A DNA stretch of 64,000 nucleotides from Hyphomicrobium sp. (lineage in GTDB: Bacteria; Pseudomonadota; Alphaproteobacteria; Rhizobiales; Hyphomicrobiaceae): contig JBJXHD010000006.1 in assembly GCA_046160845.1 (NCBI GenBank), positions 15,174-79,173 on the forward strand. Reading direction: 5' to 3'. The position numbers and the translations under genes were made by a program. Below, piece by piece: positions 18,788 through 64,000 of this stretch. The notes under the pieces are model-generated. The model was not told the DNA's origin and did not search any database. It was given only the letters and a program-made list of their open reading frames with translations. Within the stretch, counting starts at the first letter, position 1. The number at the start of each line of letters is the position of its first letter.

Positions 18788-18790
18788 GGC

Positions 18791-19042: not shown

Positions 19043-19050
19043 TTTGACAC

Positions 19051-20198: not shown

Positions 20199-20250
20199 AT
20201 GAATCCAGTCCTTCATCCGACATGACGGAAAGACAGGGCGGAGGGCGCGC

Positions 20251-43859: not shown

Positions 43860-43891
43860 GCGTCAGTCCCGGCCGCGCGATGTGATGACGA

Positions 43892-44398: not shown

Positions 44399-44493
44399 GA
44401 CCCTGCTCCTGTCGCGGCTGCTGTCCTGGCGCGCCACATGCCGCCCGAAAATGGACGCTCCCGTGGCAGGGCCAAGCCCGCAACGACGATTTC

Positions 44494-44612
44494 CGTCATC
44501 CTCGGGCGAGCGCGGCTTGCTGCTTACCGTTCGGCAGCCTCGATCGACAAGACTCCCTCTGCATGTCATCCCGGACAAGCCGCGACAGCGGCGCGCTCCG
44601 TCCGGGATGACA
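44494..44612. repeat. Palindromic repeat pair (one half copy, one perfect short copy)
   Basis: CGTCATCCTCG at 44494; TGTCATCCCGGAC (44564-44576) / GTCCGGGATGACA (44600-44612) is a perfect 13-bp inverted repeat. Confidence 0.85.
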
Positions 44613-44747
44613 GATTTTGTCAGAAGCTGCCATTAACTGCCCCTAAAGTCGCACGAAATTCGCTTGCCTTCGCCGCATCGCCAAGCTCGCTCGGCCTGTG
44701 CTAGTTCAAGACGGAGAAACGCAGTCTCGCAGCGGGTCACAACAAAG

Positions 44748-46919
<2,172 letters not shown>

Positions 46920-46929
46920 GTTTCGCCCT

Positions 46930-47040
46930 TGTCATCCCGGGCGAGCCCGCATTTGCGGCGAGACCCGGGACCCAGAACCTCACGACTTCAGTCGCCCTGG
47001 GTCCCGGATCGCGATGCCCGGCATCGCGTCCGGAATGACA
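46930..47040. repeat. Palindromic repeat element
   Basis: TGTCATCCCGG / CCGGAATGACA ends; inner CCGGGACCCAG / CTGGGTCCCGG. Confidence 0.85.
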
Positions 47041-47062
47041 AGTTGGGGCTATCCCTCCTACC

Positions 47063-47205
47063 CGTCATCCTCGCGCGAGCGCGGCATGAGCCGCGTCGAA
47101 GCGCGGGGAACCAGCACAAAACTTCTATCGCATTATCGAGCCTTTGGCGCATCCCACGCTGGATCCCCGAACGCATTTGCGTTGCCCGCGCGTTCGAGGA
47201 TGACG
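47063..47205. repeat. Palindromic repeat element related to the 19051 copy
   Basis: CGTCATCCTCG / CGAGGATGACG ends; inner GGGGAACCAGC / GCTGGATCCCC; shares CCAGCACAAAAC with the 19051 copy. Confidence 0.85.
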
Positions 47206-47299
47206 GAGTTTACGCAGCGCCGAGTTTACTACGCTTTGGCATCATGGGGGCTTAGCGGGCCCCTTATCGTGCTACGCTCCGCGCGAAGCAGGAGGCTCA

Positions 47300-47539
47300 A
47301 TGACAGAAACAGACTCAAAGCCTGGCGACATCAATCGCAATAGCCAAAGGCTGGTGGCCAAGACCAAACGACCGGGCAACGATCACAACCAACTCGTTTG
47401 GATTCTCTGTTGCGAGCGTGTCGACTATCACGGCGAGGTATGCGGTCATCGCTACGGAGCGAGCGGCTCGGACTATGTCCAGCGCAAGTGCCCGGAGTGC
47501 CAGGGCGGAGAGCCGGGTCTGTCGATCGCTAGTCTCTGA
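47300..47539 (+). CDS. Small Zn-ribbon-like hypothetical protein
   Basis: GGAGG RBS; INRNSQ..V.KT..PG.DHNQ..W.L.C...C.H.YGASGSD..QRKCPECQGG.PGL. Confidence 0.7.
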   Translation: MTETDSKPGDINRNSQRLVAKTKRPGNDHNQLVWILCCERVDYHGEVCGHRYGASGSDYVQRKCPECQGGEPGLSIASL

Positions 47540-47556
47540 ACCTTCGACGAACGTGC

Positions 47557-47874
47557 TCAGACGTCGCGCCGCGCCGCCCTGACGAGACTTCCCAGCAACC
47601 GCACGATCCCCGCAACGACGAGACCGATCAACAGCAGCAGCATCGACTTCGGGCCGAGTTCGCCGAACACGCTGGCGTAGGCCGAATCCGCCGAGCCGGC
47701 GAATGTGCTTTCGACGAAGCCCGCCATGAAGTCGAGAACGCCGCCCGCGTGGCGCACGAGTTGGCCGAAGAGGTCCATGTTGTAAAGGTTGAGCCCGACG
47801 TAGACGAGCATCGTCAGCGCCAGCTCGATGACGACCAGCGCAGCTGTGCCGATCAGCGATCCGATGACTCTCAT
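47557..47874 (-). CDS. Hypothetical membrane protein (2 TM)
   Basis: Hydrophobic N- and C-terminal segments; GAGG upstream. Confidence 0.65.
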   Translation of the reverse strand: MRVIGSLIGTAALVVIELALTMLVYVGLNLYNMDLFGQLVRHAGGVLDFMAGFVESTFAGSADSAYASVFGELGPKSMLLLLIGLVVAGIVRLLGSLVRAARRDV

Positions 47875-47983
47875 GACAGCCTCGCACGCGCGGCTGATCG
47901 GTACGTGCTCATATTAAAATTCTCCACTGTGTAAGCCGGGATGAAGGCGCCGCGCCCGCGCGCAGGATCGAAAGGCGTGGCCG

Positions 47984-48127
47984 TCACCGGTTGGACCGGA
48001 ACGACCCGGCGTAGTGTCCACGATCGAAGCCGCCGCGCTTTCCGCCGCGCAGAATAGAATCCGCGATCACCGAGCCGATGACCGTCACCATCACGCCGAG
48101 GATCAGTTGGGACATCCATCTCCGCAT
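47984..48127 (-). CDS. Small membrane peptide (47 aa), absent from the ORF track
   Basis: Read by hand: MRRWMSQLILGVMVTVIGSVIADSILRGGKRGGFDRGHYAGSFRSNR*; GGAGG RBS. Confidence 0.5.
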   Translation of the reverse strand: MRRWMSQLILGVMVTVIGSVIADSILRGGKRGGFDRGHYAGSFRSNR

Positions 48128-48313
48128 TGCCTCCGCTTAGAGGCCGACGGCGGCGGAAGTTTGGCTTCCCTGTGGCGCGTGGCGGCGGGCGACGATCGGA
48201 ATCTATCCCCGCTCTTCACCATCCCAAAAATTTTTTCGCAAAAACGTATCCCCGCTGACTCCAGCGGCCTCATCCTCAAGCTCGACACGCAAACGAAGCG
48301 CGAAAGGAAGGAC

Positions 48314-49417
48314 ATGCCCGTCGAAACGACACCGAACCTGCTGCTCCCGTACATCCTGGCGGCGCAGTCGCAGAAGCACGTGACGCACAACGAGGCGATC
48401 CGCGCGCTCGATGCGCTGGCCCAGATCACGGCGCTCGACCGTGATCTCGCAACGCCGCCCGGCGCGCCCGCCGACGGCGACCGCTACATCGTCGCCGCGA
48501 GCCCGACCGGCGCGTGGGCGGGGCAGGCCGGCAAAATCGCCGCCTACCAGGACGGCGCATGGGCGTTCTACGCGCCGCGCGAGGGCTGGATCGCCTGGCT
48601 CGCCGACGAGAACGCAGCCGTGGTTTACGACGGCGCGGCGTGGACGGCGTTTGGAGGCGGCGGAGGCGGAGGCGGCCTGGCCAACGTCGTCGAGGATACG
48701 ACGCCGCAGCTCGGCGGCCCGCTCGACGTCAACGGCTTCGCGCTCGGTGACGGCACGCGCGAACTGGTGAAATTTTCGGAGACCGCGTCGGCCGTCAACG
48801 AAGTGACGGTGACGAACGCGGCGACGGGTGGCAATCCGCAGCTAAGCGCCACCGGCGACGATACGAATATCACGCTGTCGCTTGTGGGCAAGGGGAGCGG
48901 CGGCGTGCGGGCGCCCGTGCTCGGCGTCAACGCCAACGGCGATACGACCAACCGATTGTCGGTGACGAGCCCGGCGGCGCTGTTCAATCACGCGGGCGCC
49001 GGCCATCAGGTCAAAGTCAACAAGAACGCCGCCGGCGATACGGCGAGTTTCCTGTTCCAGACCGGCTTCTCGGGCCGCGCCGAAATCGGCACGACGGGCG
49101 ACGACGATTTCCACTTCAAGGTCAGCGCCGACGGCTCAACGTTCAACGAGGCGCTGATCCTCAACAAGACGACGGGCGCCGTGACCCACAAGGCAGGCGC
49201 GCGCGCGACGTTTTCCCATGACGCGACTCTGCCGGGACTGCGACTGATCCCGGCTGCGAGCGATCCATCGACGCTGCTCGACGGCGATCTTTGGTTCAAC
49301 GCGACGACGGGAAAATTCCGCAAGCGCCAAGGCGGCGCGACGTCCGACCTCGATACGACCGGCGGCGGCGGGAGTTCGACACCGGACTTTTTGATCATGA
49401 ACCAGGGGATCATCTGA
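48314..49417 (+). CDS. DUF2793 domain protein, phage/GTA tail-fibre-like
   Basis: TPNLLLPYILAAQSQKHVTHNEAI..LD, GDRYIVAASPTGAWAGQ, P.EGW.AW, ASFLFQTGFSGRAEIG..GDDDFHFKVSADGS; GGAAGGA RBS. Confidence 0.85.
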   Translation: MPVETTPNLLLPYILAAQSQKHVTHNEAIRALDALAQITALDRDLATPPGAPADGDRYIVAASPTGAWAGQAGKIAAYQDGAWAFYAPREGWIAWLADENAAVVYDGAAWTAFGGGGGGGGLANVVEDTTPQLGGPLDVNGFALGDGTRELVKFSETASAVNEVTVTNAATGGNPQLSATGDDTNITLSLVGKGSGGVRAPVLGVNANGDTTNRLSVTSPAALFNHAGAGHQVKVNKNAAGDTASFLFQTGFSGRAEIGTTGDDDFHFKVSADGSTFNEALILNKTTGAVTHKAGARATFSHDATLPGLRLIPAASDPSTLLDGDLWFNATTGKFRKRQGGATSDLDTTGGGGSSTPDFLIMNQGII

Positions 49418-49418
49418 C

Positions 49419-49550
49419 ATGGCGACAGCAGCACAGTACGCAACGCAACCGACCCACGACTATTCGACCGGTAATACGGCCAACGCCAACCGCGACGGCA
49501 CGGGCACGACTGTCGTCGCCGCATCCGGCGTCGGCACGGCAGGCAAGCGC
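49419..49550 (+). pseudogene. Truncated phage structural gene
   Basis: MATAAQYATQP...TANANRDGTGT resembles small phage tail-associated proteins; after ~49550 the frame reads into antisense acyltransferase sequence. Confidence 0.5.
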
Positions 49551-50115
49551 AAAGGCGCTCCAGCCATTCAGAAAGAACACCGGCGCATCAGGCCAGAGCA
49601 GCGCGGCGCACGACGGCGCGAAAAGCACGATCCATCGCAGCGGAGGGCGAAGCAGGCACAGGCTTACGATCAGGTAGAAGGCCACTTCGTAACTGAGCGA
49701 CCAATACACCCAATTTACGCCGGGCACGGAGGTGACGGGAGCGGTCGTCAGCGTCAGTGTGGCCGCCCAAGAAAAAGCGGTCTTCGGCACGGCGATGAGA
49801 TCGTTCGTTCCGGTTTCAAGTCTTCGCGCGAGCACAAGACAAATGACGAGAGCGACGCTCGCTAAGTACGGAGGATATATCCGCCAGAACCGGCGTCACA
49901 AAAATGATACGGGACCAGTCGAGCGAATGGCGCTCGACTGCACGGCGAAACCGCTGATTGCGAAGAAGGCCGGCACTCCAAGCCCGCCCATCGATACGAT
50001 GTCTTGGTAGGCGCTCGGCGCAAATATGCCGACTTCATTGAAATGAAAAATGGCGACCGCGCAGACGGCGAGGCCGCGCATGCTGTCGATGAAGGCGAAG
50101 CGATCGGGCTAATGG
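49545..50115 (-). pseudogene. Acyltransferase-3 (O-acetyltransferase) pseudogene
   Basis: DRFAFIDSMRGLAVCAVAIFH, GVPAFFAISGF, then in-frame TGA (49896-49898) in FL*RRFWRIYPPY, then YWSLSYEVAFY; in-frame TAG at ~50110; 3' half missing. Confidence 0.8.
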
Positions 50116-50529: not shown

Positions 50530-51129
50530 CTAGAGCCCATAGATCATGTTCTCGGCGTTCGTGTAGAGCGGACGCATTTTGAACCGAGCGAAATAGGATT
50601 TGAACTTGTCGCCGTCGGCGCTGTTCCATTCGGCGCAGATCAGCTTGACGCCAAGCGCTTTCACGTCGATTTGCTCGAGGATCTCCAACACGTTACCCTC
50701 TGTATCGACGTTGATGAAATCGAACGTCTGATACTTGGCGCGCTTGAGAAGCTCGGGCACCGTCACCATCTCGCGGCTGATCTTGTTGAACTTCGTATTA
50801 TAGGCCTTCGCCCAGCGGTGCGTTTCTGACTCTAGAGTCGACGATATGGCGTCTCCGCTGGAGTCGAAGAACTCGACAGCCCCGTTGACGGCGCCAACGC
50901 AGACCGGGAGCACCTGTATGTCCGGGTCATTGCCGTATTCCGCCTCGAACGCCGGCAAAAGCGACGGCGAGGGTTCAACGAATACGCCTTTGAATCCTTT
51001 CTCATAGAGCGCGCGCGTATTCGAGAACGTCTTTGGATGAAAGGCGCCAACATCGAGGAACGTTCCGCCGCCTGTCCATCGAAAGTATCCCAGGATGTGC
51101 TTCTCTTCTTCGTTCTGGCTGTACATCAT
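50530..51129 (-). CDS. FkbM-family SAM methyltransferase
   Basis: FLDVGAFHP..FSNT..LY, G.FVEP, FINVDTEG. Confidence 0.88.
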   Translation of the reverse strand: MMYSQNEEEKHILGYFRWTGGGTFLDVGAFHPKTFSNTRALYEKGFKGVFVEPSPSLLPAFEAEYGNDPDIQVLPVCVGAVNGAVEFFDSSGDAISSTLESETHRWAKAYNTKFNKISREMVTVPELLKRAKYQTFDFINVDTEGNVLEILEQIDVKALGVKLICAEWNSADGDKFKSYFARFKMRPLYTNAENMIYGL

Positions 51130-51200
51130 CTGATCCGTCGATAAGATTCATCGTCGTTTGTGGCGCGCCCTACCTCGCTTTTTAGCGAGCGCATCGGGAT

Positions 51201-52091
51201 TTAGCTGACGAGTTCGAGGTTTTCGAGGTCTGTGGTGCGACAAAAGACGAAATCGTAGTCGATGAAAACCGATTGGTTCCTGCCAAAGCTATTGCACGTG
51301 AAGATCAATGCGAATCCCAATTCTTCCATCATCGAACAGGCTTCGCCAAGCCTGCATTGACCTTCGTAAAGCGGAATTCCGGACAACTCCATAACGACGA
51401 GTTTCAGGTTCGGAATAAATTCACCCGTTGATTTCAAAACGCGCTCCTCGAAGCCTTGGACGTCCAATTTCAGCATCACCCGCCGCTTCGGGTCTCGAAG
51501 GACGTCTCCGAACGCTTCGTCGACGCGACGAACGAGGATTCTTTCGGGCGCGCCAAGCACGACGTCGGGCGCAAATTTCTCGAGAGCTTCGGTTTGAGGG
51601 AGGAGTGACGAGGTTCCCCCATGCCCCTTTCCGACAAATATCTCAGAGGGACCGGGTACATCGCCGAGCGCCGCGTTATAGGCTTTCCAACCTTGATAGT
51701 GATGCAAGTAGCTCGCTAGAACGTCATAGTACTTTTTGACGGGCTCGAAGGAATGCACCTCGCCCTTAAAGCCGCCATAGCCGTACAAGGTGGAGGCGAA
51801 TTGCCCCGAGTGAGCCCCCGCATCGATGACAAAGTCGATTCCAAACTGGCGCGCCAAATTTCCAAGGTGGGCATAGAGTTGGTAGGCGATGACGCGTTGA
51901 TTGACGATATCGAGCGCCGCAGCGGGCTGACGCGCCAAGAGGTCCGCCAAGTCGTCGCCGAAAACCTTCGGTGATTTCGCTTTCAAGAATGCGGCGTCGA
52001 TTTTTGTGATGCGAAAGGCGCGCGAAGCCAGCCATCGAAATCTGTCAACGTGCCTGATGGCTGCCATCACGGCCGGGCGACGCTTGATCAC
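51201..52091 (-). CDS. FkbM-family SAM methyltransferase
   Basis: VIDAGAHSGQ, HSFEP, ALGD, LKLDVQGFEE.VL. Confidence 0.88.
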   Translation of the reverse strand: MIKRRPAVMAAIRHVDRFRWLASRAFRITKIDAAFLKAKSPKVFGDDLADLLARQPAAALDIVNQRVIAYQLYAHLGNLARQFGIDFVIDAGAHSGQFASTLYGYGGFKGEVHSFEPVKKYYDVLASYLHHYQGWKAYNAALGDVPGPSEIFVGKGHGGTSSLLPQTEALEKFAPDVVLGAPERILVRRVDEAFGDVLRDPKRRVMLKLDVQGFEERVLKSTGEFIPNLKLVVMELSGIPLYEGQCRLGEACSMMEELGFALIFTCNSFGRNQSVFIDYDFVFCRTTDLENLELVS

Positions 52092-52123
52092 TCTCTCAAC
52101 TCTCCTCGGCGATCGTAACCTGG

Positions 52124-53119
52124 CTATCTGGGCCTGGTAACAGTGCCGGCAATGATCCCAACCCAGCGGACATAGGGCATCCAGCGCTCATACACAAAGT
52201 TTTGCCAGTGCGGATACGCAGTCGGATTATTGTAACGGCGCAGAAACGTCAGGTCGAGCAAAGCGTCCTTGCACGATGCGGCGATTCGCGTCCACTTCGT
52301 CGGCGACTCTTTGGCGCTTGCGAATGTTGTCGACGAAGCCAACTCTGACCATTCGACCGGCGGCGCGAGCGCACGAGTGTCAAGGCCGTAAAGTCGTCCA
52401 CGCGCCATTCCGCGTCGGAAATTCTCGCTGATGATTGTGCGCCATTTGAATTTTTCCGGACGCACGAGGTGGCGGTTCACAAACGACGGCTCATAAATCA
52501 CTTTGTCCGCGCCGAACTTGGACGCAAGAGCTTGCACCAGAATGTTCTCTTCGCCGTAGTTCATGTGGCGCCCGATGGGGCCCTGCGCCGCCGCGAACCC
52601 TCCGACTTGCGCGAAGGCGCGACGACTGACGCCAAGATTTCCGGCGCTCAAGTCTGGCAACGACTGGCGCGTTGCCGTGCCAGGCATGGAGTAGGCTCCG
52701 TAGGCGTCCTTGAACCATTTCGGGCGCACCGGGCGAGGCCAAAAGCGAGGCTCGATCGGTCCGCCGAAACAGACCGGCTCGCCGCGCCCGATGATCGAGT
52801 GGGCAGTGTCGAGGTAGTCTCCTGGGAACACGCACTCATCATCGACGAACAGGAGATAGGGCGTCTGCGCCTCGCCTGCGCCGCGATTGCGGGCGCGGCT
52901 CGCGCCAATCTTCGGTTCAAACATGTAGGAAAAGCGTTCGAGACGCTGGCAGAATCCTGTGGCGAGCGACGCGGTCTCGTCGGTCGACCCGTTGTCAACG
53001 ACCAGCACGCGCCAATCGGGGCGATCGCTGCGCTGCGCTTCGAGGCTCTCGAGGCATTCGCGCAGCATGGCGGCGCGATTGTGCGTCACGACGATGACGG
53101 TGATCACGGCGGGTCTCAA
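52124..53119 (-). CDS. Glycosyltransferase family 2
   Basis: VIVVTHNR, VVDNGSTD, G.SRARNRG, LFVDDE (DxD), YGEE. Start uncertain (TTG 53119 or GTG 53107); the ORF-track extension to 53542 overlaps the upstream gene. Confidence 0.88.
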   Translation of the reverse strand: MRPAVITVIVVTHNRAAMLRECLESLEAQRSDRPDWRVLVVDNGSTDETASLATGFCQRLERFSYMFEPKIGASRARNRGAGEAQTPYLLFVDDECVFPGDYLDTAHSIIGRGEPVCFGGPIEPRFWPRPVRPKWFKDAYGAYSMPGTATRQSLPDLSAGNLGVSRRAFAQVGGFAAAQGPIGRHMNYGEENILVQALASKFGADKVIYEPSFVNRHLVRPEKFKWRTIISENFRRGMARGRLYGLDTRALAPPVEWSELASSTTFASAKESPTKWTRIAASCKDALLDLTFLRRYNNPTAYPHWQNFVYERWMPYVRWVGIIAGTVTRPR

Positions 53120-53205
53120 GGTTGACGTCAAATGTACGGGCGGCGCCGCGCATTGATACCTCGGTTCTCTGGGCGGCGTCAGTAGCCGAGAGAGTGCGGC
53201 AGCCA

Positions 53206-54216
53206 TCACGGTCGGCGCACGCAATGACCCGGCATGACAGCGCGGTGGCGCACGACGGCGCGCCATTTGTCGACGGTATGGAACTGAACGACCGCGGCAA
53301 ATGCCGACACAACCAGCAGAAACGGCAAAGCGACGAAGAACGTGAGTGGCGAACGATTGGGGAGGCCAACCATTGCGCAGGTCGCCATGCCGACGTGATA
53401 ATGGAAAATGTAGATGGGATAGGAAAGCCGGCCCAACCAGTCGTCGATCGCTTCGAACCGACGATCGGCCGCCGAAAGCATCACAACAAGCAGCCCGCAA
53501 ATCAGAACGCTCGCATAGAACGGGGTCGTATCTGGCCGCCAAGTCGTATTCGGCGTGATACTGCAGAGTCCAGCCATGGCGCTGGCCAGAACGGCTACCC
53601 GCAATGAGTCGCCGCCAAAAATCGCCAGAAGCTCGCTTCTAAAATGCCAGATTGCGACGCCGAGCGAGAATGCCAGCGATGCGGACCAAATGGAGTAGTA
53701 GCGATCCCAGCCCAAGGTAAATGCAACGACATGATAGACAACTGAGGCTGCAAGCCATGCAAGTGCGAGACGGCGATCACGCCCGAGACCCAGGCCGATC
53801 AGGATGTAGAAGAAGAATTCGACCGCCACCGCCCAACTCGGCGGCACAAGATGCGAATCGTCATCAGGCCAGAAGTACCAATTCATCACTGCGCGTGCGA
53901 TCGAGCCGATGTCTTCGGGCCAGATGAAATTGCGGTGGAACGAGCGCGCCGCATCAGATCCGAAACAGGCGATGAGCAGCAAGGTCGCGAGGCATCCCAT
54001 CCAGTAAAGCGGATAGATTCGTAGAAATCGATTGAGCAGAAAGTGCGCAAAGCCACGCGGGTGAAAACCATACGTTTCATGGACTATCCGAGCCATGATA
54101 AAGCCGGACAGCACGTAGAACCCGTAGACGGCATAAGCGGCCGAGAAGCCGATTGCACCCGATAGATGCGAGAATGCGACGACCATTGCGAGGCTGGTGC
54201 GGAACGCGCCGAACAT
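53206..54216 (-). CDS. Acyltransferase-3 family membrane O-acyltransferase
   Basis: GFYVLSGFIM, NRFLRIYPLY, SWAVAVEFFFY, LGRLSYPIYIFH; about 10 TM. Confidence 0.88.
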   Translation of the reverse strand: MFGAFRTSLAMVVAFSHLSGAIGFSAAYAVYGFYVLSGFIMARIVHETYGFHPRGFAHFLLNRFLRIYPLYWMGCLATLLLIACFGSDAARSFHRNFIWPEDIGSIARAVMNWYFWPDDDSHLVPPSWAVAVEFFFYILIGLGLGRDRRLALAWLAASVVYHVVAFTLGWDRYYSIWSASLAFSLGVAIWHFRSELLAIFGGDSLRVAVLASAMAGLCSITPNTTWRPDTTPFYASVLICGLLVVMLSAADRRFEAIDDWLGRLSYPIYIFHYHVGMATCAMVGLPNRSPLTFFVALPFLLVVSAFAAVVQFHTVDKWRAVVRHRAVMPGHCVRRP

Positions 54217-54218
54217 CG

Positions 54219-54980
54219 TCAGATCGCAAGCTCGAACGGCGCCGCCGCAAGCAGCGCTGCGGGATTGAACTGGGGCGTCACCTTGAGCTGTTTCGCTGCG
54301 CGCTTAAGCATTTCCGAAATGGAGGGAAAATCCGAGCACGTCGCCGCCCCCTCGACAGAACATTGAACCGACTCGAAATGATCGTGGTACTTCATGCCGT
54401 CGCCGCCGATCTTGTCGCTGAACGAGACCCAGGCGGCCGGCACGCCGTAGGCGTGCGCCACGATAATTCCGTGGAGCGAACTCGAAAGCACCTTGTCGCA
54501 GCTGACGATAGCGTCGGTCACGCGCTCTGGGGCGTCAAGAACGTCGATCAATCGGATTTCCCGACCCTCACCCGAATAGCGTTCGAACACGGCGCGCTGA
54601 TCTACGTAGTGTGGGATGAGTCCGACGGAGTGCGTTTTCCTCTGAATTGGTCGATAGACCCGTGGCATCAACAGCGCTGGATCGCCGAATGTCTTCGGCG
54701 CTGTGCAGCCGCACTCGATGGCGCGCTTCCAAGATCGGGGACCGCGCACGGCCCGAATTTCAGTTGCGGGGTTGACGCAGTCGCTATGACTGGCGAGACC
54801 CGGGCCCCATGCGATGGCGTACTCGTTGCACCACCCGAGTATTGATCCAATGGCGACGACTTTCTTGACCGGCTCGTCGATGTTTGTGAACACCACCCCG
54901 CTCTTTGAGAGGCGTGCGAGAAGATAGTGATTGAGGTGGTCGCCAAAGTTGTGGTTCGGCATCCAAAAGGCGTTCACCAT
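54219..54980 (-). CDS. Polysaccharide pyruvyltransferase (ExoV-like)
   Basis: NFGDHLN, IGSI, VRGPRS, GDPALL, IPHYVD, SSSLHGIIVAHAYGVP. Confidence 0.88.
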   Translation of the reverse strand: MVNAFWMPNHNFGDHLNHYLLARLSKSGVVFTNIDEPVKKVVAIGSILGWCNEYAIAWGPGLASHSDCVNPATEIRAVRGPRSWKRAIECGCTAPKTFGDPALLMPRVYRPIQRKTHSVGLIPHYVDQRAVFERYSGEGREIRLIDVLDAPERVTDAIVSCDKVLSSSLHGIIVAHAYGVPAAWVSFSDKIGGDGMKYHDHFESVQCSVEGAATCSDFPSISEMLKRAAKQLKVTPQFNPAALLAAAPFELAI

Positions 54981-54986
54981 TCCTCG

Positions 54987-55910
54987 CTAGCGCTCCCCGC
55001 GCGTCATGTCGTCGAACGCGGCCGCCACACTCGGAGGGATATCGCGACTCCGAAGCCAAAAATCGACAAGTGAAAGCCGTAGCCTTGGGTAGCGCGAGAA
55101 CGAGCGCAGCACCTCCAAAACCGCCAACGCATAACGTTGCTCGGTCCAAGCAGCAGCTCCTAACTCCAAGCTCAAGTAGGCAAGCAATCGACTCAATTCC
55201 GACGGAGCTAGCCTGGATTCACGGCTTGGCGCAAATTTCTCTGCGACGAGATCGGAGCACCCGCTCACAACTGCAAAGCTTGCGGAATGCGAAGGCGCGA
55301 TCACGACCATCGGACTTGGATCAACGTGAAGCTCACCGCCCCTTTGAGCAAATCGGATGAACCAATCAAGGTCCTCCAGCCGCCGAAGCCGTGGATCAAA
55401 AGGGCCAACGGCGTCGTATGTGGACCGTCGCATAAGCAGCGTCGAACCAGGAGCGAACCAGCACCCGCTTGCAAACTCGCTCAGCGAGTTCGAAGCCTTG
55501 GGTCGCCGCGCCTCCAATCGTCCGGACGCTCGATGCGGGTAGTAGAATGAGCAGACGAGAGCCAACAATCCCGCGCCGTCAGTAGCGGCATCAATGACCT
55601 CGAAGCGCCGGAGCTGCGCCGCGAGCTTTCCTGGCAGCCACAGGTCATCCGAGTCGAGGAAAGCCAGCAGCTCGCCGGAACTCGCCAAGATGCCGGCGTG
55701 TCTCGCTGCGGCCGGCCCGCTATTCGACGCCAGGCGGACAACTTTCACGCGGCCGCTCTCGTCTCGGACTTCGATTGGCGGCGTCGACCCATCGTCGACC
55801 AGAATGACCTCGACGGCGTGTTCGCCGCAGGGCGCTTGATCGAGCACGGACTTGAGAGCCCGTTCGGCGCGCGCCTGGCGATCGTAGACGGGGATGATGA
55901 CGCTGATCAT
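54987..55910 (-). CDS. Glycosyltransferase family 2
   Basis: ISVIIPVY, LVDDGS, GPAAAR..G, FLDSDD, EDLDW. Confidence 0.88.
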   Translation of the reverse strand: MISVIIPVYDRQARAERALKSVLDQAPCGEHAVEVILVDDGSTPPIEVRDESGRVKVVRLASNSGPAAARHAGILASSGELLAFLDSDDLWLPGKLAAQLRRFEVIDAATDGAGLLALVCSFYYPHRASGRLEARRPKASNSLSEFASGCWFAPGSTLLMRRSTYDAVGPFDPRLRRLEDLDWFIRFAQRGGELHVDPSPMVVIAPSHSASFAVVSGCSDLVAEKFAPSRESRLAPSELSRLLAYLSLELGAAAWTEQRYALAVLEVLRSFSRYPRLRLSLVDFWLRSRDIPPSVAAAFDDMTRGER

Positions 55911-55941
55911 GGAGTCCGACCCGGCCTCTGTCCCCGCCAGT

Positions 55942-56682
55942 TCACAGCGTCTTGTGGAACGCATTCGTGACGTCCAGGACGTCGCCGTACATCCGCACTT
56001 CGCCTTTCTCCAACCAGAGCGCCGTCGTACAGAATTTTCGGATGATCTCGGTGGCGTGACTTGCAAACACGAGGATCTTCGATTGCTCAACCAATTGCTC
56101 GATCCGCGAATTGACTTTCTTCATGAACATCGCGTCACCGGCGCCCAACATCTCATCCATCACGAGCACGTCGCCCTCGAATTGCAGTGCGATCGACACG
56201 ATCAAGCGGGCCAGCATCCCCGCCGAGTAGGTCGAGACGGGCATGTCGATGAACTCTCCGAGATCGGAGAACTCGACGATTTTCGGCAGCGCTTCTTCGA
56301 TCGCGCGCACGTCTTGCGTATAATAGAAGGCGACGTTCTTGATGTTCACATAGCCAGACCGGCTCGGATCGAGACCCGCCGAGAGATTGAAAAACGTGCG
56401 GATCTCGCCGTCCACGCGCAGAGAACCCGAAGTAATCGGATAAAGACCGGCAAGCGTCTTCAGAAGCGTCGTCTTGCCAGCGCCATTGTGCCCAATGAGC
56501 CCAAGTCGTCCGCCAGGCGGAACGGTGAGCGAGACATCGTGCAAGGCGCGAACTTTCATTCGCGTGCTAGATTGGTTCGTGATGACGCCGCCGATGCGGC
56601 GCGCTACGGCGCCCTTGATCGACTTGCGTCCATCTAGGATTTGCACCGGTATCTCAACCGTGACTTTGTCGAGGACGATCAA
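55942..56682 (-). CDS. wzt: Polysaccharide ABC exporter ATP-binding subunit (no C-terminal carbohydrate-binding domain)
   Basis: GHNGAGKTT, YSAGMLARL, VMDE, GDAMF, FASH, LWLEKG; 246 aa. Confidence 0.88.
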   Translation of the reverse strand: MIVLDKVTVEIPVQILDGRKSIKGAVARRIGGVITNQSSTRMKVRALHDVSLTVPPGGRLGLIGHNGAGKTTLLKTLAGLYPITSGSLRVDGEIRTFFNLSAGLDPSRSGYVNIKNVAFYYTQDVRAIEEALPKIVEFSDLGEFIDMPVSTYSAGMLARLIVSIALQFEGDVLVMDEMLGAGDAMFMKKVNSRIEQLVEQSKILVFASHATEIIRKFCTTALWLEKGEVRMYGDVLDVTNAFHKTL

Positions 56683-56732
56683 TCGGCGACTCCCAGCGGC
56701 GCAACGTCAACACCATCCTGCGCGAGCGAAAA

Positions 56733-57548
56733 CTAGACCCAAAACACCAGATACGATCCGTACTTCTTGTTGAAGTAGCTCGAGAGCATCCAGGCTACGG
56801 CGATCATGAAGAGCGCCGCGGCGTAGATTTCGGGCCCCGGAAGTTGCCCGAGAAATGGCCGTCGCACGAGCTCAAGCAGGTAGTAGAACGGGTTTACATG
56901 AATGAGCCACTGACCGCGCGGCGGTAGCCTGCTTGGCTCGTAGAGGATCGGCGACAATAGAAAGAGCAGATAGATCGCCGCCGCCATCGCAGGCGCCAAG
57001 TCGCGAAAACGCGCGCCAAGGATGCCGAGCAAGTTCGACAGCGGGTAGAGCAACGTGAACAGCAACGCCAAATTGACCAAACCCACAACAAGGGTATGAA
57101 AAAAAGTTACGCCGCAATAGACAGCAATGGCGAAGTAGACGGGCAAGCCGAACAAAAAAATCACGAAGTGACGTAGCGTCATGCGCAAGGCGAACGTCGA
57201 ATACGGCAAGGGAAAAGCGTTGAGGATCGAACCGGCGACATGATAGGTGCGCGGCGCCTCGCCAATGGCGCCGCTGACCAGGTTCCACGTCAGAATGCTG
57301 ATTGCGAGATACGGAAAGAACTCCTTCAGGCTGACGTTGAAGACCATGGAATATACGAATGCGATTCCCGAAATCGTAATCGTCTGCGCGATCATGAGCC
57401 AGAAAATTCCGAGCCCGGTGCGCTCGTACTGGCGTGCGATATCCTGACGTAGAAAATGCAGACTGAAGTCGACCCAACGCTTGTCCAGCAACAGCGAGTT
57501 GCGCATAACGCGAATGTCGGGACGGGATGACAGGTCGCGGACGGTCAC
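56733..57548 (-). CDS. wzm: Polysaccharide ABC exporter permease
   Basis: DI..QY.RT.LG.FW, LSPILY, NPFYYLLELVR.P; six TM; upstream of wzt. Confidence 0.88.
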   Translation of the reverse strand: MTVRDLSSRPDIRVMRNSLLLDKRWVDFSLHFLRQDIARQYERTGLGIFWLMIAQTITISGIAFVYSMVFNVSLKEFFPYLAISILTWNLVSGAIGEAPRTYHVAGSILNAFPLPYSTFALRMTLRHFVIFLFGLPVYFAIAVYCGVTFFHTLVVGLVNLALLFTLLYPLSNLLGILGARFRDLAPAMAAAIYLLFLLSPILYEPSRLPPRGQWLIHVNPFYYLLELVRRPFLGQLPGPEIYAAALFMIAVAWMLSSYFNKKYGSYLVFWV

Positions 57549-60151
57549 AGCGCAACGCGTCGCTGGATGACAAAGCGCATAGCGGGGCCGGCCGCCGTTT
57601 TCGCTTCTTTGGCCAAAAGTTCAGACAGTTGAGAGAACATGTTGTACTTCCTCAAAACGAGCATGCGAGCTTCAGCCAAGTCGTCCTGTCGTTCGCGCCA
57701 TAGCTCGGAACTCGAAATATCATCAATGCGGTCGAAGATCATCGGGTCGTCGGGATCGATTCGAATGAACGATCTTTCAGGGAAGTATTTTCCGATGTCG
57801 GGGGAGCCGAAGTAGAACGGCATCGTTTGGCAAACGAAGCAATCCATAAGTTTCTCGGTGAAATACAGCGGCGCGACAGTGTTCTCGAACGCGATGCTAT
57901 AACGATAAGGCGCGATGCCGTCCCATTTGTCGTCGATTTCCGTGAAACCGCGGCCAAACAAGTCGAAATCCACCTTGCGTTGAAGGCGCTTGAGAAACGC
58001 CATGCGCGCCTGATGGCCGGCGAGAATATTGGTGTTGCTTGTGACCCAGGACAGTCGCCTCGGTTTGTCGATGCTAGCCAACGCCAACAATTCTGACGCC
58101 GTCTTCTTGACGTGCCACGTCCGCGTCATGACAGGGGTGAGGATATAGCGGCGATTCTGCTCGTGGCGCGTCGTGACCCCCGCGTCGCAAGTGACGACAA
58201 CAGTCCCGCTGCCCTGCCCTTCATGCAGCACGCGGTGAAAAGTTGTCGGCGGCTCGCCGATGGCGAACCACACGCGATTTGCAGGCAGGTCGATCTCTAC
58301 ACTATCCTCCATCGGCGTATTCAGAATGAGACAGAAGTCCGGTTTTTGGACGAGGTCTGCCGGAGCAAATGCAACATCGTTCCAAATACCATCATTCGAC
58401 TCCGACATATCATGCATCGCATCGTCGAAGTCTCCCCAGCTTTCATGGACGGCGACCTTGATCGTCGCCTTGTCAAGGCTCTCCGCGTAGTTCACGCGAT
58501 ACTGCCGCGCCGTCGGTGCGGAAGCGCCAGAAGTGGCGAGATTCGGCGGGCGCGACGTCGCCGACAACCGATCGAGGGCTCGGTCACGGGTGACCCTGAA
58601 GGCAGCCAGCGACGCAATAGCGCCGATGACGCCCTGGCCCCGCAATTGCCGGACGATCAGACGCTCGAACACGAACGCGGAGACGGCGCGAGTCCCTTCA
58701 TTGCGCCACTTGCCGCGCAACACGGCCAGCTTGACCCTGAACCCCGAAGTGTCGACGCCGATGACCTTTGCCGGAATCGGCACGGCCTCATTGGCGTCGT
58801 CAACGAGTTGTAAGGCCGCGGTGCGTTCAATGACCAAACCCGGCAGCGCACCGTCGATCAACAATGCTCCCGTAACAGCAATCGGCTCGCCGTTGCGCAT
58901 GATATCAGGCCGCGCACGACCGCTGAAGATGGCGCGCGATGGTCGGTTTTCGAGTGCCGTCCTCAGGAAACCATGCAGTTCCCAAGGCCGAAATGCGCGC
59001 CGCTGAGGGGCTACGAGAAAATAATCGCCTGCAGAGTTTAAAAATAGCATCCGCCAGGGAGACGACTCCGACGTAGCATAGTTCACGACCCTGATTGGAA
59101 CATCGAGGTCGGCGATCTGCGATCGAAACCGATCCGCCTCATCGACTTTGACGGCGATCAAAACTTCGAAAGACTTTAGAGTTTGCGCCGCATAGGATTC
59201 GGCGAGTGTGCGAAACGAACTAAAAGGTGGAGCAACATGGCCGATGGTCAAGGCTGGCTTTTCGCCCTCTAGCTTGTGTCCAAGGGCCGTCATGATTTCT
59301 GCTGTGGTGAGTTCGCTATTCGCAATGAGGCTACGAGGAGACAAATGGTCCCGCAGTTCGCTAACGCCGATCGCGTTCAGCGGGTCAGGCTTGCCCTGCC
59401 GCCGTAGCCGCGCGGCTGACCTGGCGAGAACGCCTAGCCTCGTCGTCGCGGCGGTATTGTCGCGACTGTGGGTCAAAGAAGAAGCGTGCCGTCGGTAGGT
59501 GTAGAGCGCGTCGGCGATATTGGTGATATCATGCCGATCGGCCATTTTCAGGATCCAATCACCATCTTCACCGCCCCCACTGAAAATTTCGCGAAAAGGG
59601 CCGGCGTCTTCGACCGCCGCCCGCCGCGCGACCAGCGTCGCGCAACAGAGCTGCGGATCAATGCGCTGCAGTGCCGGATCGGCAGAAAAGTATTCGGTGC
59701 GTAGACGCACTAGGTTTTCGTCGGCGTAGATGATACCGGCGCCGACCGCACCGAACTGGGTGTTGGTGGTCAAGAATGCGATCTGCTTCTCGATTCTGTG
59801 CGGTGCGCTGACATCGTCGCTGTCGTTCCAACCTATGAAGGCGCCGCGCGCTGCGGAAACCAGAGCGTTCCGGGTCGCGACGACGCCCCGGTTGTCTGGG
59901 TGCGGAGGAAGAATGCGGACCCTTGCATCCCGGTCGGCGTACGCATGAGCAATGGCAAGCGACCGATCTGTGGATCCGTCGTCGAGCAGAACCACTTCAA
60001 TGTGACGATAGGTCTGCCCCAGAAGGCTGTCGAGCATCGCAGGCAAGAACCGCTCGGCATTGTAGATGGGCGTGAGCACCGAGACCAATTCCGGCGACGC
60101 CTCTCCTGAAATTTCGAGAACTGTTCGATCCATAAGCAGTGTGCATTCCAT
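57545..60151 (-). CDS. Multidomain glycosyltransferase: N-terminal GT2, central region, C-terminal GT10-like domain
   Basis: VSVLTPIYN, LDDGSTD, WNDSDD, EDGDW; C-terminal DLFGRG, YRYSIAFEN...YFTEKL.DCF, P.YFG (GT10 motif). Confidence 0.82.
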   Translation of the reverse strand: MECTLLMDRTVLEISGEASPELVSVLTPIYNAERFLPAMLDSLLGQTYRHIEVVLLDDGSTDRSLAIAHAYADRDARVRILPPHPDNRGVVATRNALVSAARGAFIGWNDSDDVSAPHRIEKQIAFLTTNTQFGAVGAGIIYADENLVRLRTEYFSADPALQRIDPQLCCATLVARRAAVEDAGPFREIFSGGGEDGDWILKMADRHDITNIADALYTYRRHASSLTHSRDNTAATTRLGVLARSAARLRRQGKPDPLNAIGVSELRDHLSPRSLIANSELTTAEIMTALGHKLEGEKPALTIGHVAPPFSSFRTLAESYAAQTLKSFEVLIAVKVDEADRFRSQIADLDVPIRVVNYATSESSPWRMLFLNSAGDYFLVAPQRRAFRPWELHGFLRTALENRPSRAIFSGRARPDIMRNGEPIAVTGALLIDGALPGLVIERTAALQLVDDANEAVPIPAKVIGVDTSGFRVKLAVLRGKWRNEGTRAVSAFVFERLIVRQLRGQGVIGAIASLAAFRVTRDRALDRLSATSRPPNLATSGASAPTARQYRVNYAESLDKATIKVAVHESWGDFDDAMHDMSESNDGIWNDVAFAPADLVQKPDFCLILNTPMEDSVEIDLPANRVWFAIGEPPTTFHRVLHEGQGSGTVVVTCDAGVTTRHEQNRRYILTPVMTRTWHVKKTASELLALASIDKPRRLSWVTSNTNILAGHQARMAFLKRLQRKVDFDLFGRGFTEIDDKWDGIAPYRYSIAFENTVAPLYFTEKLMDCFVCQTMPFYFGSPDIGKYFPERSFIRIDPDDPMIFDRIDDISSSELWRERQDDLAEARMLVLRKYNMFSQLSELLAKEAKTAAGPAMRFVIQRRVAL

Positions 60152-60253
60152 TGCCTGTGTTGGGCGTCAACCCCGGCATGATCGTCGACGCCATTTAGCC
60201 GATGGCGTCCATCAACTTTGGACGCAGGCTGGTCGGCCATGCCGTGCAGCGCG

Positions 60254-60317
60254 TTACGCCGATCTTTACGCCGCCCTTATGCCGACGCCGCACGTTCCCC
60301 ATCGAGAATTTATGCCG
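60254..60317 (+). promoter_or_regulatory. Phased TTAYGCCG repeats, candidate KdpE operator
   Basis: TTACGCCG 60254, TTACGCCG 60266, TTATGCCG 60277, TTATGCCG 60310 (spacings 12, 11, 33), upstream of kdp. Confidence 0.55.
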
Positions 60318-60358
60318 TACAGCCCAGGTTCAGGTGGTCAATTTCAGGAGCCCCGCCC

Positions 60359-60442
60359 ATGCTTGACGTCATCTATCTCGCGCTCGGTCTCGGAGGGTTC
60401 GGCCTGATGGCCGGATATGCCCTGATCTGCGCACGCCTGTGA
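60359..60442 (+). CDS. 27-aa membrane peptide upstream of kdpF
   Basis: MLDVIYLALGLGGFGLMAGYALICARL*; CAGGAG RBS. Confidence 0.65.
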   Translation: MLDVIYLALGLGGFGLMAGYALICARL

Positions 60443-60449
60443 GGACGCC

Positions 60450-60536
60450 ATGAGCGATCCGATCATCGGGCTCGTCGTCGCCCTCGCCCTTGGCGTCTAC
60501 CTCGTTTACGCGCTGGTGCGCCCCGAAAAATTCTGA
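60450..60536 (+). CDS. kdpF: K+-transporting ATPase subunit F
   Basis: MSDPIIGLVVALALGVYLVYALVRPEKF*; YL.YAL.RPE.F motif; GAGG RBS. Confidence 0.9.
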   Translation: MSDPIIGLVVALALGVYLVYALVRPEKF

Positions 60537-60557
60537 AGGCTCGGGAGGGCCTTTCCC

Positions 60558-62267
60558 ATGACCGTTATCGGATGGATGCAGATTGCGCTCATACTTGGGG
60601 CGGTCGTCGCAGCGGCGTGGCCGCTGGGACTTTACATGGCACGCGTGTTTGCGGGGCAGAAGACCATTTTGTCGCCGGTTCTCGCGCCGGTGGAGCGCGC
60701 GCTTTACGCGGCGTCGGGCGTCCGGCCGGACAAGGAACAAACTTGGCTTCAGTATGTGCTGGCCATGCTGGCGTTCAACGGCGCCGGATTTCTGCTGCTC
60801 TACGCGATGATGCGGCTTCAAGGCTATCTGCCGCTTAATCCGCAGGGCTTTACCGGCGTTTCGCCCGACCTCGCCTTCAACACCGCCGTCAGCTTCGTCA
60901 CCAACACCAACTGGCAGTCGTACGGCGGCGAGACGACGATGAGCCATCTCGTACAAATGACGGGCCTGACCGTGCAGAACTTTGCGTCGGCCGCGACCGG
61001 CATCGCCCTCGCGCTCGCCGTAGCCCGCGCGTTCTCCCGCAGCCGCGCCGCGACGCTCGGCAACTTCTGGGTGGATATGACGCGCGCCACGCTCTACGTG
61101 CTGCTGCCGCTCTCGATCGTGCTTGCCATCGCATTCATCGCGACAGGCGTGCCGCAGACGCTCCAAGCCAGCGTCGACGCGACCACGCTCGAAGGCGCCA
61201 AGCAGACGATCGCCCTTGGACCTGTGGCCAGCCAGGAGGCGATCAAGCAGCTCGGCACCAATGGCGGCGGCTTCTTCAACGTCAACGCCGCGCACCCGTT
61301 TGAGAACCCGAACGCGTGGTCGAACATCCTGTCGATCTGGAGCATGCTGCTGATTTCGACGGCGCTGACCTTCACTTTCGGACGCATCGTCGGCGACGCG
61401 CGGCAGGGTTATGCGTTGCTGGCCGCGATGGCGGTCTTGCTGATCGCTGGCGTCGCTGTCGTATACGCCGCTGAAACGGCGGGTAATCCGCTGATGACAG
61501 GCGCCGGAGTCGATAGCGCGCTCGGCAATCTCGAAGGCAAGGATATCCGCTTTGGCCAGGCGCTGACTGCACTCTATGTCGTGGCGACCACAGGCCTCTC
61601 CTGCGGCGCCGTCAATGCCATGCACGATTCGTTGATGCCGCTCGGGGGCCTCGTGCCGCTGTTCATGATTCACCTCGGCGAGATTCTGCCGGGCGGCGTC
61701 GGCTCGGGGCTTTACGGCATGATCGTCATGGCCGTTCTAACGGTATTCGTCGCCGGTTTGATGGTCGGCCGCACACCCGAATATCTCGGCAAGAAAATCG
61801 AGGCGCGCGAAATGAAGCTCGCCATGCTGGCGCTGCTTATCCTGCCTTTGACGATCCTGGGCTTCTCGGCCGTGGCGGCGACGCTGCCCACGGCATTGGC
61901 CAGTCTGGCCAACGCCGGTCCGCACGGATTAAGCGAAATCCTGTACGCCTACACCTCGGCAGCCGGAAATAACGGCTCGGCATTTGCTGGACTGAACGCC
62001 AACACGCCTTGGTATAACACCACGCTCGGCATCGCGATGGTGCTCGGCCGCTTCGCCTACGTCGTGCCCGTGATGGCGATCGCCGGCGCGATTGCAGTCA
62101 AACAAAAGGCGGCAGCATCGGCCGGCACGTTCCCGACGCATGGACCGCTGTTCATCGGTCTGCTCATCGGCGTGATCTTGATCCTCGGCGGATTGCAATA
62201 CTTCCCCTCGCTGGCGCTCGGCCCCATCGTCGAGCACGTGCTGATGCACGCCGGCAAGACATTCTGA
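60558..62267 (+). CDS. kdpA: K+-transporting ATPase subunit A
   Basis: [55 protein letters not shown]. Confidence 0.97.
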
Positions 62268-62278
62268 GGAATATCGTC

Positions 62279-64000
62279 ATGACCAAAAAATCGGCGGCAG
62301 CGCTTCTCGACGGCGCCATTCTCAAGCAGGCGTCGTTCGACGCCGTCATCAAGCTCGCGCCACAGAAGCTCGTCCGCAATCCCGTGATGTTCGTCACCGG
62401 CGTCGTCGCAGCGCTTGTTACGGCGATATGCCTGCGTGACATCCTGATCGGCGGCGACGATCTGGCGTTCACGGCGCAGATCGCCGCCTGGCTCTGGTTC
62501 ACGGTGCTGTTCGCCAACTTCGCCGAGGCCGTCGCCGAGGGCCGCGGCAAGGCTCAGGCCGACGCCTTGCGCCGCACGCGCAGCGATACGATGGCCAAGG
62601 TCATGCTGCACGCCGATGACTCCAAGGATGATCCCTGGGAATCGAAGTCGGCGCTAGATCTCAAGGAAGGTGACGTCGTGCTCGTCGAGGCCGGCGACAC
62701 GATCCCCGCCGACGGCGAGATCGTCGAGGGCATCGCCTCGGTGAACGAATCCGCCATTACGGGCGAGTCGGCGCCGGTCATCCGCGAGTCGGGCGGCGAC
62801 CGCTCGGCCGTAACAGGCGGCACTGTCGTGCTGTCGGACTGGATCAAGGTCCGCGTGACTGCGGCGCCGGGATCGTCGTTCCTCGACCGCATGATCGCGC
62901 TTGTCGAAGGCGCGGAACGCCAGAAGACGCCCAACGAACTGGCGCTGTCGATTTTGCTCTCCGGCATGACCCTGATTTTCCTGATCGCGGTCGTGACGCT
63001 CTGGGGACTGGCGCGCTATTCAGAGACCACGCTGTCCATGACGGTGCTTGCAGCGTTGCTGGTTACGCTAATCCCGACGACGATCGGCGGCCTGCTCTCG
63101 GCCATCGGCATCGCCGGCATGGACCGGCTGATACGCTTCAATGTGGTCGCGACCTCCGGGCGCGCCGTCGAAGCCGCCGGTGACGTCGACACGCTGCTGC
63201 TCGACAAGACCGGAACGATCACCTACGGCAACCGGCTCGCGACGGCATTTATTCCTGCGCCCGGCTTGACCGATCGCGACGTCGCGGAAGCGGCGCTGAC
63301 CGCCTCGCTGTCGGACGGAACGCCCGAAGGCCGCTCGGTGGTCGCGCTCGCCAAAGGTCAGTATGGCCTCTCCGAGCCGGCGCTGACCAAGGACTCTTCG
63401 ACAATCATTCCGTTCTCGGCGCAGACGCGTCTATCCGGCGTGGACTTCGACGGTCGCCGCATTCGCAAGGGCGCCGTCGACGCCGTGATCGCCTTCGCCG
63501 GTCAGTCGCAGGAGACGATCCCTGCAGCTGTAAAAGAGGCGGTCCAATCCATCGCCAAGTCCGGCGGCACGCCTCTCGCCGTCGCGGAAGGTGGCAAGCT
63601 GCTCGGAGTCATCCACCTCAAGGACGTCGTGAAGCCCGACATCAAGGAGCGCTTCGCAGCGCTGAGATCCATGGGCATCAGAACCGTGATGGTCACGGGC
63701 GACAACGCCGTCACCGCCGCGGCCATCGCCTCGGAAGCGGGCGTCGACGATTTCATTTCGGAAGCGACGCCCGAGGACAAGCTCGCCTACATCAAGAGCG
63801 AGCAAGGCAAGGGCCGGCTCATCGCCATGTGCGGCGACGGAACCAACGACGCGCCGGCGCTGGCGCAGGCCGACGTGGGAGTCGCCATGCAAACCGGCAC
63901 GCAGGCGGCGCGCGAGGCCGGCAACATGGTCGACCTCGATAGCGACCCGACCAAGCTGATCGAGATCACCGAGATTGGCAAGCAGCTGCTGATGACGCGC
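62279..64000 (+). CDS. kdpB: K+-transporting ATPase subunit B (truncated by the window end)
   Basis: [48 protein letters not shown]; ATG at 62279, frame open to the end. Confidence 0.96.

Follow-up and report, generated by a model that had tools for sequence, protein, structure and literature searches.

The subject of this analysis is an island of glycan-assembly genes at positions 50,530 to 60,151 of a 64,000-nucleotide stretch of Hyphomicrobium sp. DNA (GenBank assembly GCA_046160845.1, contig JBJXHD010000006.1; this whole stretch is the window). The source is a 3.1-Mb, 54-contig, 96%-complete Hyphomicrobium assembly, and the product of mcmA (methylmalonyl-CoA mutase), in the left flank of the island, is 90-93% identical to Hyphomicrobium proteins, including that of H. 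denitrificans ATCC 51888. The island is filled by nine co-oriented, minus-strand open reading frames (ORFs), all nine of which lie above the Pfam gathering score, in the order GT2/GT10 fusion, wzm, wzt, GT2b, pyruvyltransferase-like gene, AT3, GT2c, FkbM1, and FkbM2 (Table 1; GT, glycosyltransferase). The products comprise four glycosyltransferase activities, a Wzm/Wzt exporter, two FkbM methyltransferases, one pyruvyltransferase-family protein, and one AT3-family acyltransferase. With the starts of GT2b and GT2c corrected by alignment with homologues before calculation, the successive gaps, in order of transcription, are -4, 50, 31, 6, 2, -1, 32, and 71 nt. Gaps of these sizes fit a single operon transcribed towards lower coordinates.

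Table 1. Genes of the island, in order of transcription, followed by features at its borders.
Feature	Coordinates	Strand	Evidence and remarks
GT2/GT-A-like/GT10 fusion, 868 aa	57545..60151	-	Pfam GT2 99 bits and Glyco_transf_10 45.8 bits
wzm, ABC-2 permease	56733..57548	-	Pfam ABC2_membrane; start overlaps fusion stop by 4 nt
wzt, ATPase, 246 aa	55942..56682	-	Pfam ABC_tran only, no domain after ATPase
GT2b, single-domain GT2, ~307 aa	54987..55910 (ORF 54987-56090)	-	Pfam GT2 88 bits; start MISVIIPVYDR
Polysaccharide pyruvyl transferase family, short, 253 aa	54219..54980	-	PF04230 44.7 bits, cut-off 25.3
AT3-family membrane acyltransferase, 336 aa, no SGNH domain	53206..54216	-	Pfam Acyl_transf_3 57 bits
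GT2c	52124..53206 (ORF 52124-53542)	-	Pfam GT2 90 bits; ATG overlaps AT3 stop (TGATG)
FkbM1 methyltransferase, 296 aa	51201..52091	-	Methyltransf_21 53.5 bits; TIGR01444 63 bits
FkbM2 methyltransferase, 199 aa	50530..51129	-	Methyltransf_21 43 bits; TIGR01444 51.5 bits
Presumed promoter region	60152..60359		208-nt gap between fusion gene and divergent kdpFAB operon
AT3 pseudogene (N-terminal half)	49542..50105	-	Acyl_transf_3 positions 2-172 of 326, E 1.2e-17
DUF2793 tail-fibre-like gene, RcGTA Rcc00171 family, outside operon	48314..49417	+	Pfam DUF2793 115 bits; PHROG tail-fibre families

An earlier note, made from the sequence alone, had described nine co-oriented genes with short gaps or overlaps, less GC-rich than their flanks, with no nucleotide-sugar, initiating-transferase, ligase, or Kps genes, and with a Wzt lacking a C-terminal glycan-binding domain. 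All of this is borne out. The coordinates and domains of the nine genes were verified; searches of the nine proteins against Pfam and NCBIfam returned no sugar-nucleotide, initiating, ligase, or Kps domain; and the only Pfam domain in the 246-residue Wzt is that of the ATPase. The GC content of the island is 58.1% vs. 62.3% for the genome, which places the island at the 4th percentile among 1336 equal-sized windows, its tetranucleotide distance is in the top 9%, and GC content at third codon positions is 0.65-0.75 for island genes vs. 0.81-0.85 for flanking genes. A sigma-70 consensus scan of the presumed promoter region (60152-60359) gave no convincing site, and promoter and terminator scans gave background level only.

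A three-module glycosyltransferase beside an exporter with a short Wzt

The first gene of the operon had been described as a GT2-GT10 fusion. Structure prediction indicates that the protein has a third folded module, missed in that description: the AF2 model (pLDDT 71.7) shows a GT-A module, a second, GT-A-like module at residues ~295-453, a helical linker at ~463-524, and a C-terminal GT-B module. In an alignment of 11 homologues, the N-terminal GT2 module keeps its DSDD and GGEDGDW motifs, and the middle module has nearly no invariant residues and no conserved DxD. In the C-terminal module (PF00852, 45.8 bits vs. cut-off of 23.9), the motif YRYSIAFENTVAPLYFTEK is invariant across the same 11 homologues, as are all specified residues of the fucosyltransferase signature FEN...YFTEK (F749, E750, N751, Y757, T759, E760, and K761). 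Foldseek gives the tandem GT-A polymerases PmHS2 (Pasteurella heparosan synthase) and K4CP (E. coli K4 chondroitin polymerase) as best fold matches for the first two modules, and finds that the C-terminal module resembles the Helicobacter pylori fucosyltransferase FucT (2nzw). A PDB profile search agrees, with matches that include 2nzw, 5zoi, and FUT9. Judged by motifs and family scores, the C-terminal module is GT10 alpha-1,3/4-fucosyltransferase-like, and the middle module is taken to be non-catalytic.

We propose, on the strength of the predicted fold, that the fusion is a chain-extending polymerase. It is a multi-module glycosyltransferase encoded directly upstream of wzm, in a locus whose nine proteins have zero Pfam matches to Wzx flippase or Wzy polymerase families. 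In K4CP and PmHS2 both GT-A modules are catalytic, whereas the second module here lacks a conserved DxD. H. pylori FucT shares with the C-terminal module the GT-B fold and the alpha-1,3-fucosyltransferase signature FEN...Y.TEK; however, FucT works on its own, decorating an O-chain that is already complete, whereas the island module is fused to GT-A modules and its gene is directly before wzm, as genes for polymerases are. About 40 proteins in a large protein collection have the GT2+GT10 architecture, with a top identity of 51% and only generic glycosyltransferase names; they are seen across Alphaproteobacteria, Acidobacteria, Planctomycetes, and other groups. In eight examined loci the fusion gene directly adjoins wzm and wzt. 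Among related loci (designated by L numbers), L032 encodes at 5656-8814 a variant of 1052 aa with an FkbM domain fused at its N-terminus, and L129, a contig of ENA ERZ17990957, encodes at 2941-5772 a variant of 943 aa whose middle module is still recognised, by score, as an intact GT2.

GT10 enzymes are known, to our knowledge, for decorating chain ends. If the GT10 module works within the polymerase, it would be a new type of catalytic module for ABC-dependent glycan assembly lines and a possible tool for producing fucose-containing polymers.

The exporter places the operon in the ABC-dependent class: genes for Wzm and Wzt lie within a cluster of glycosyltransferase genes, and NCBIfam Wzm/Wzt models are the best matches of the two proteins. 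Both subunits have as nearest relative the mycobacterial galactan exporter (RfbD/RfbE; NF050109, NF050108; PDB 9qfx), which likewise has a short Wzt with no carbohydrate-binding module (CBM). Wzm matches the galactan-export Wzm/RfbD model at 134.7 bits, under cut-off (135 vs. 380), and is nearest in the PDB to the mycobacterial permease 9qfx_A (E 2e-29); Wzt matches the galactan-export Wzt/RfbE model at 222 bits vs. a cut-off of 400, with the 244-position model spanning the protein end to end, and is nearest to 9qfx_C (263 aa, E 3e-58). The island proteins thus score well under the equivalog cut-offs, and cargo and cell envelope differ from those of mycobacteria. The absence of a C-terminal CBM from Wzt is the arrangement of the Klebsiella O2a type, in which export is obligatorily coupled to elongation, as it may be here.

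The remaining genes encode two further glycosyltransferases and four decoration enzymes. GT2b has homologues of 41-45% identity in the locus of Bosea sp. NPDC003192 and in L032, and we propose that it is an adaptor or side-chain transferase. GT2c, for which an alternative GTG start at 53107 is possible, is 48-50% identical to the product of the gene right after wzt in L031, L032, L035, and L036. FkbM1 is 63-68% identical to its counterparts in the Bosea locus, L050, and L129, and FkbM2 is 59-66% identical to its counterparts in L050 and L129. The AT3 protein is proposed to be an O-acetyltransferase.

In the pyruvyltransferase-like protein, the match to PF04230 covers model positions 125-277 only, that is, the C-terminal half. 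The protein has 982 homologues of ~250 aa, and its AF2 model (pLDDT 97.2) has as best fold match yeast Pvg1p (5ax7; TM 0.51, E 1.8e-4). In CsaB, R148, R306, H308, and K328 bind phosphoenolpyruvate (PEP; PMC10435577). In the subfamily to which the island protein belongs, SSSLHG, R79, H170, and K197 are invariant, and R79, H170, and K197 are, by alignment, plausible equivalents of the PEP residues. The assignment as a pyruvyltransferase is suggested by family membership and predicted fold, and the donor is putative.

To the left of FkbM2 lies the N-terminal half of a second AT3 gene, interrupted in frame by a TGA at 49896-49898 and lacking a start codon; this decayed gene indicates that the locus is decaying at its left edge. 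The intact AT3 was considered as a duplicate of the pseudogene and rejected as such, the two being only 25% identical.

Distribution across relatives and more distant genomes

The full-length fusion is present in 0 of 60 relatives, 36 of them of the same genus, and the intact AT3 has no homologue among 40 genomes of the genus. When 185,579 species genomes were scanned, the full-length fusion turned up in Bosea sp. NPDC003192, in Rhodoplanes sp. SY1, and in scattered metagenome-assembled genomes of other phyla. The closest Hyphomicrobium contigs, in which mcmA is 90-93% identical, are syntenic with the present one on the left as far as mcmA and a small ORF, and beyond mcmA they continue with genes that in the present genome are located on another contig (C27). 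This continuation points to rearrangement rather than to a clean insertion. On the right, the divergent kdpFAB operon (60451-64000) is itself accessory: 21 of 41 genomes of the genus have kdpA, and each of the seven closest has different genes upstream of it. Unlike a core, syntenic block of host-like composition, the operon has a full-length fusion that the relatives lack, adjoins a synteny break just right of mcmA, and is atypical in composition. We conclude that the operon is strain-specific, and accessory rather than core. Because the fusion and AT3 are absent genus-wide, composition is atypical, and synteny breaks beside mcmA, the operon probably was acquired horizontally. Distribution is stronger evidence for transfer than composition is.

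Bosea sp. NPDC003192, Rhodoplanes sp. SY1, and two contigs of metagenomic origin share with the island a core made up of the fusion, wzm, wzt, GT2c, and FkbM, with 46-68% identity (neighbours of related loci being annotated in part). In the Bosea locus the core adjoins gmd and a genuine fcl (508.6 bits to the Fcl model, cut-off 500). In L032 the core stands beside two genes of the Gmd/epimerase family and a gene for a separate FucT_N+GT10 protein. The FkbM1-FkbM2-pyruvyltransferase block is best matched, at 57-70% identity, in L129 and L050, where it stands beside GT2-GT10, wzm, and wzt; the transporters of these two loci are more distant, at 33-50% identity. Genes for the pyruvyltransferase-like protein and FkbM also adjoin GT2-GT10, wzm, and wzt in Bosea sp. 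NPDC003192. The transporter core of the island is thus closest to Bosea, L031, and L032, and the decoration block is closest to L129 and L050, and because core and decoration block have different nearest loci, the operon looks mosaic. AT3 is the only island gene with no clear counterpart in the related loci; its single weak match, at 24%, is in L071.

These comparisons also bear on the proposal of the earlier note that three decoration chemistries in so compact a locus are unusual, which proves overstated: the FkbM-FkbM-pyruvyltransferase arrangement recurs in L129 and L050, and pyruvyltransferase-like and FkbM genes occur together in Bosea. As read from these gene sets, the combination of methyl and pyruvyl decoration is a recurring, not a singular, feature. 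The island belongs to a known kind and is an ordinary example of it, its only moderately interesting element being the three-module transferase. Surface glycans usually differ from strain to strain, and the island is an instance of this in a methylotroph genus with little-studied envelope sugars.

Predicted product and alternative readings

The functions that the island lacks are encoded elsewhere in the genome. The route from GDP-mannose to GDP-L-fucose is represented: gmd (601 bits) and fcl (501.7 bits, cut-off 500), both above equivalog cut-offs, are on contig C1, and manC/PMI, also above its equivalog cut-off at 661 bits, is on C10. On C1, at 43500-49800, the two genes form part of a row ugd-rmlA-rmlB-fcl-gmd that is distant from every glycan assembly locus. 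Candidates for a polyprenyl-phosphate initiating transferase are present: one WecA-like gene, on C14, which reaches 56 bits with the WecA model, well short of its cut-off, and three Bac_transf genes outside the island; the genome also encodes MraY. Four Wzy_C proteins are ligase candidates, with roles indistinguishable by sequence. Because sugar-nucleotide functions and candidate initiators and ligases are encoded outside it, the island is a dependent add-on, in keeping with the suggestion of a plug-in module that uses host sugars; such dependence is normal for ABC-dependent O-antigen clusters.

We conclude, with a probability of roughly 65%, that the island directs the synthesis of an ABC-transporter-dependent surface polysaccharide of the O-antigen type, and that its operon is accessory, mosaic, and probably of horizontal origin. 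Going by the transferase and donor-pathway genes, the product most likely contains fucose. According to the mechanism we propose, a host initiator would prime undecaprenyl phosphate, GT2b and/or GT2c would add a short adaptor or branch, and the three-module enzyme would elongate the chain, with the GT2 module adding hexose and the GT10 module adding L-fucose from GDP-fucose in alternation. In the cytoplasm, the FkbM enzymes would O-methylate the glycan and the pyruvyltransferase-like enzyme would add ketal pyruvate, possibly at the chain end. The CBM-less Wzm/Wzt would then export chains with no need to recognise a cap at their end, as Klebsiella O2a/O1 does, the AT3 enzyme would O-acetylate the polymer, and a ligase of the WaaL type would join it to lipid A-core.

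Two known systems resemble the island. Klebsiella pneumoniae O2a/O1 has a CBM-less Wzm/Wzt, the multi-module polymerases WbbM and WbbY, and, on O1, a non-essential terminal pyruvate (PMC11231755), and by analogy serves as functional prototype. Klebsiella and the island would have in common, besides an ATPase with no CBM, elongation by multi-module glycosyltransferases, an initiator and ligase encoded elsewhere, and a pyruvyltransferase-family enzyme that is not required as export signal. However, the Klebsiella products are galactans whereas a probable fucose-containing polymer is expected here, the polymerases have no sequence relationship, and the island adds two FkbM genes and AT3. The methylated, acetylated, fucose-rich O-polysaccharides typical of rhizobia (PMC12595478) offer a phylogenetic parallel. 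Rhizobium tropici CIAT 899, of the same order, has a 22-gene wrt operon for an ABC-dependent O-polysaccharide (PMC12595478); as expected here, the product is wzm/wzt-dependent, is a polymer of GDP-L-fucose-derived 6-deoxyhexose, and is made more hydrophobic by acetyl or methyl groups. In contrast to the island, the wrt operon itself includes gmd, fcl, and pmi, its Wzt has a CBM, and fucose is transferred by WrtF, a single-domain GT2 (GT-A), rather than by a GT10 module fused into a polymerase. A search of the available literature on Hyphomicrobium O-antigen, or on a methylated and pyruvylated polysaccharide there, found nothing relevant.

Several points weigh against our reading of the island. 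First, the R-L-H triad of CsaB reads S-L-H in 32 of 32 aligned members of the pyruvyltransferase-like subfamily, with Ser at the position of the PEP-binding Arg306; because of this replacement the donor of the enzyme is not certain. Second, L031 and L050 have a DegT aminotransferase gene in place of fcl (with, in L050, WbqC in addition), and the GT10-like module therefore may not be fucose-specific family-wide. Third, other glycan loci of the same genome are as GC-poor as the island, which makes composition alone weak evidence for transfer. Fourth, an empty site sought in relatives through the DUF2793, kdpA, and mcmA flanks was not found. Fifth, we infer the donor sugars of the glycosyltransferases, the methylated and pyruvylated positions, and attachment to lipid A.

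The alternative that retains most weight, although clearly a minority one, at somewhat over one chance in five, is that the same machinery makes a glycan other than lipopolysaccharide: a lipid-anchored, capsule-like polymer, an exopolysaccharide, or a protein-linked chain (on S-layer, pilin, or flagellin) attached by an oligosaccharyltransferase of the Wzy_C family. Several points favour it. A second, larger, GT4-rich Wzm/Wzt cluster at 50000-74000 of contig C51 (loci L116 and L117), with Bac_transf and Wzy_C genes nearby, encodes a Wzt of 474 aa whose C-terminal extension has a weak Wzt_C match; this cluster is the better candidate for, and probably is, the main O-antigen locus. A Wzx/Wzy-type cluster is on the same contig, the four Wzy_C proteins have no role assigned by sequence, and the nearest relative of the island transporter exports a cell-wall galactan, not an O-antigen. 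However, there are no genes for Kps-type export, a lipid linker, or an oligosaccharyltransferase in or beside the operon, and its genes are much the same set as in proteobacterial operons for O-polysaccharides (PMC11231755, PMC12595478).

It is improbable, at somewhat under one chance in ten, that the operon was not gained recently but is an old possession of the lineage that the sampled relatives have lost. Glycan loci are commonly GC-poor even if vertically inherited, and the other such loci of this genome match the island in this respect; moreover, the genus is very diverse (KdpA ~80% identity, DUF2793 protein ~50-60%), and no sampled relative lies above species level. Against this, the best matches of the operon are in other genera and phyla, its parts differ in their nearest loci, and absence from all 60 of 60 relatives would require many independent losses. 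Horizontal gain of a mosaic operon remains the preferred account.

The neighbouring DUF2793 gene

Left of the AT3 pseudogene, on the opposite strand, is a gene of the DUF2793 family, which includes the tail fibre of RcGTA (PMC5026251, PMC10883770). The earlier note had seen here a prophage relic, a view that the results do not support: the DUF2793 gene stands alone, with no other phage gene beside it, and occurs, as a single copy, in 40 of the 41 genomes of the genus, and therefore is a resident gene. A reading of it as part of a gene transfer agent (GTA) was rejected, no member of the GTA g12 (PF09343) or g15 (PF13547) family being encoded by the genome, which is 96% complete. At least six relatives have the gene in a conserved context beside hrpB, and in 10 relatives it is never beside mcmA or kdp. 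In the present genome the genes of its usual context map to contigs C24 and C7, and the usual site itself, at 1957-4475 of C7, holds a 376-aa epimerase-like ORF (from an N-terminal sequence reading only) and a PglA-like GT4 gene. Because the usual hrpB-side context thus maps to C24 and C7 without DUF2793, the gene has moved next to the island.

In L129, the module of fusion, wzm, wzt, three FkbM genes, and pyruvyltransferase-like gene adjoins, at 13796-20232, a gene for an 1856-aa protein with repeated weak matches to tail-fibre PHROG families and then a weak ClpP-like (head-maturation protease) match.

DUF2793 and the operon might conceivably belong together, as a receptor-binding fibre that has been domesticated and the glycan that it recognises, exchanged together at a change of surface type. 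We give this about one chance in twenty; if true, such a fibre/glycan pair could serve, for example, cell-cell recognition or uptake of phage-like particles.

Least probable of all is delivery of the operon by a phage or prophage as a module for receptor masking, with DUF2793 as phage remnant: the tail-fibre-like gene is 1.1 kb from FkbM2, a truncated gene lies between the two, and the homologous module of L129 is followed by the weakly phage-like protein just described, but a tblastn comparison of the fusion with 50,697 phage records and with 72,556 plasmids yielded generic GT2-domain matches only, the island borders have no tRNA and no att-like direct repeats (only chance-level repeats of <=33 nt), the small flanking ORFs have no PHROG match, DUF2793 is resident in the genus, and the Bosea, Rhodoplanes, L031, and L032 loci have ordinary chromosomal neighbours.

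Minor elements lie on either side of the region. Directly after the mcmA stop are two palindromic elements, at 46930-47045 and 47063-47205, that belong to a dispersed repeat family; both are multi-copy in the genome itself (contigs C4, C8, C21, C33, and C42) and genus-wide, at 72-94% identity. At the other end, a 27-codon hydrophobic ORF (MLDVIYLALGLGGFGLMAGYALICARL) occupies 60360-60443, shortly before kdpF (60451-60537).

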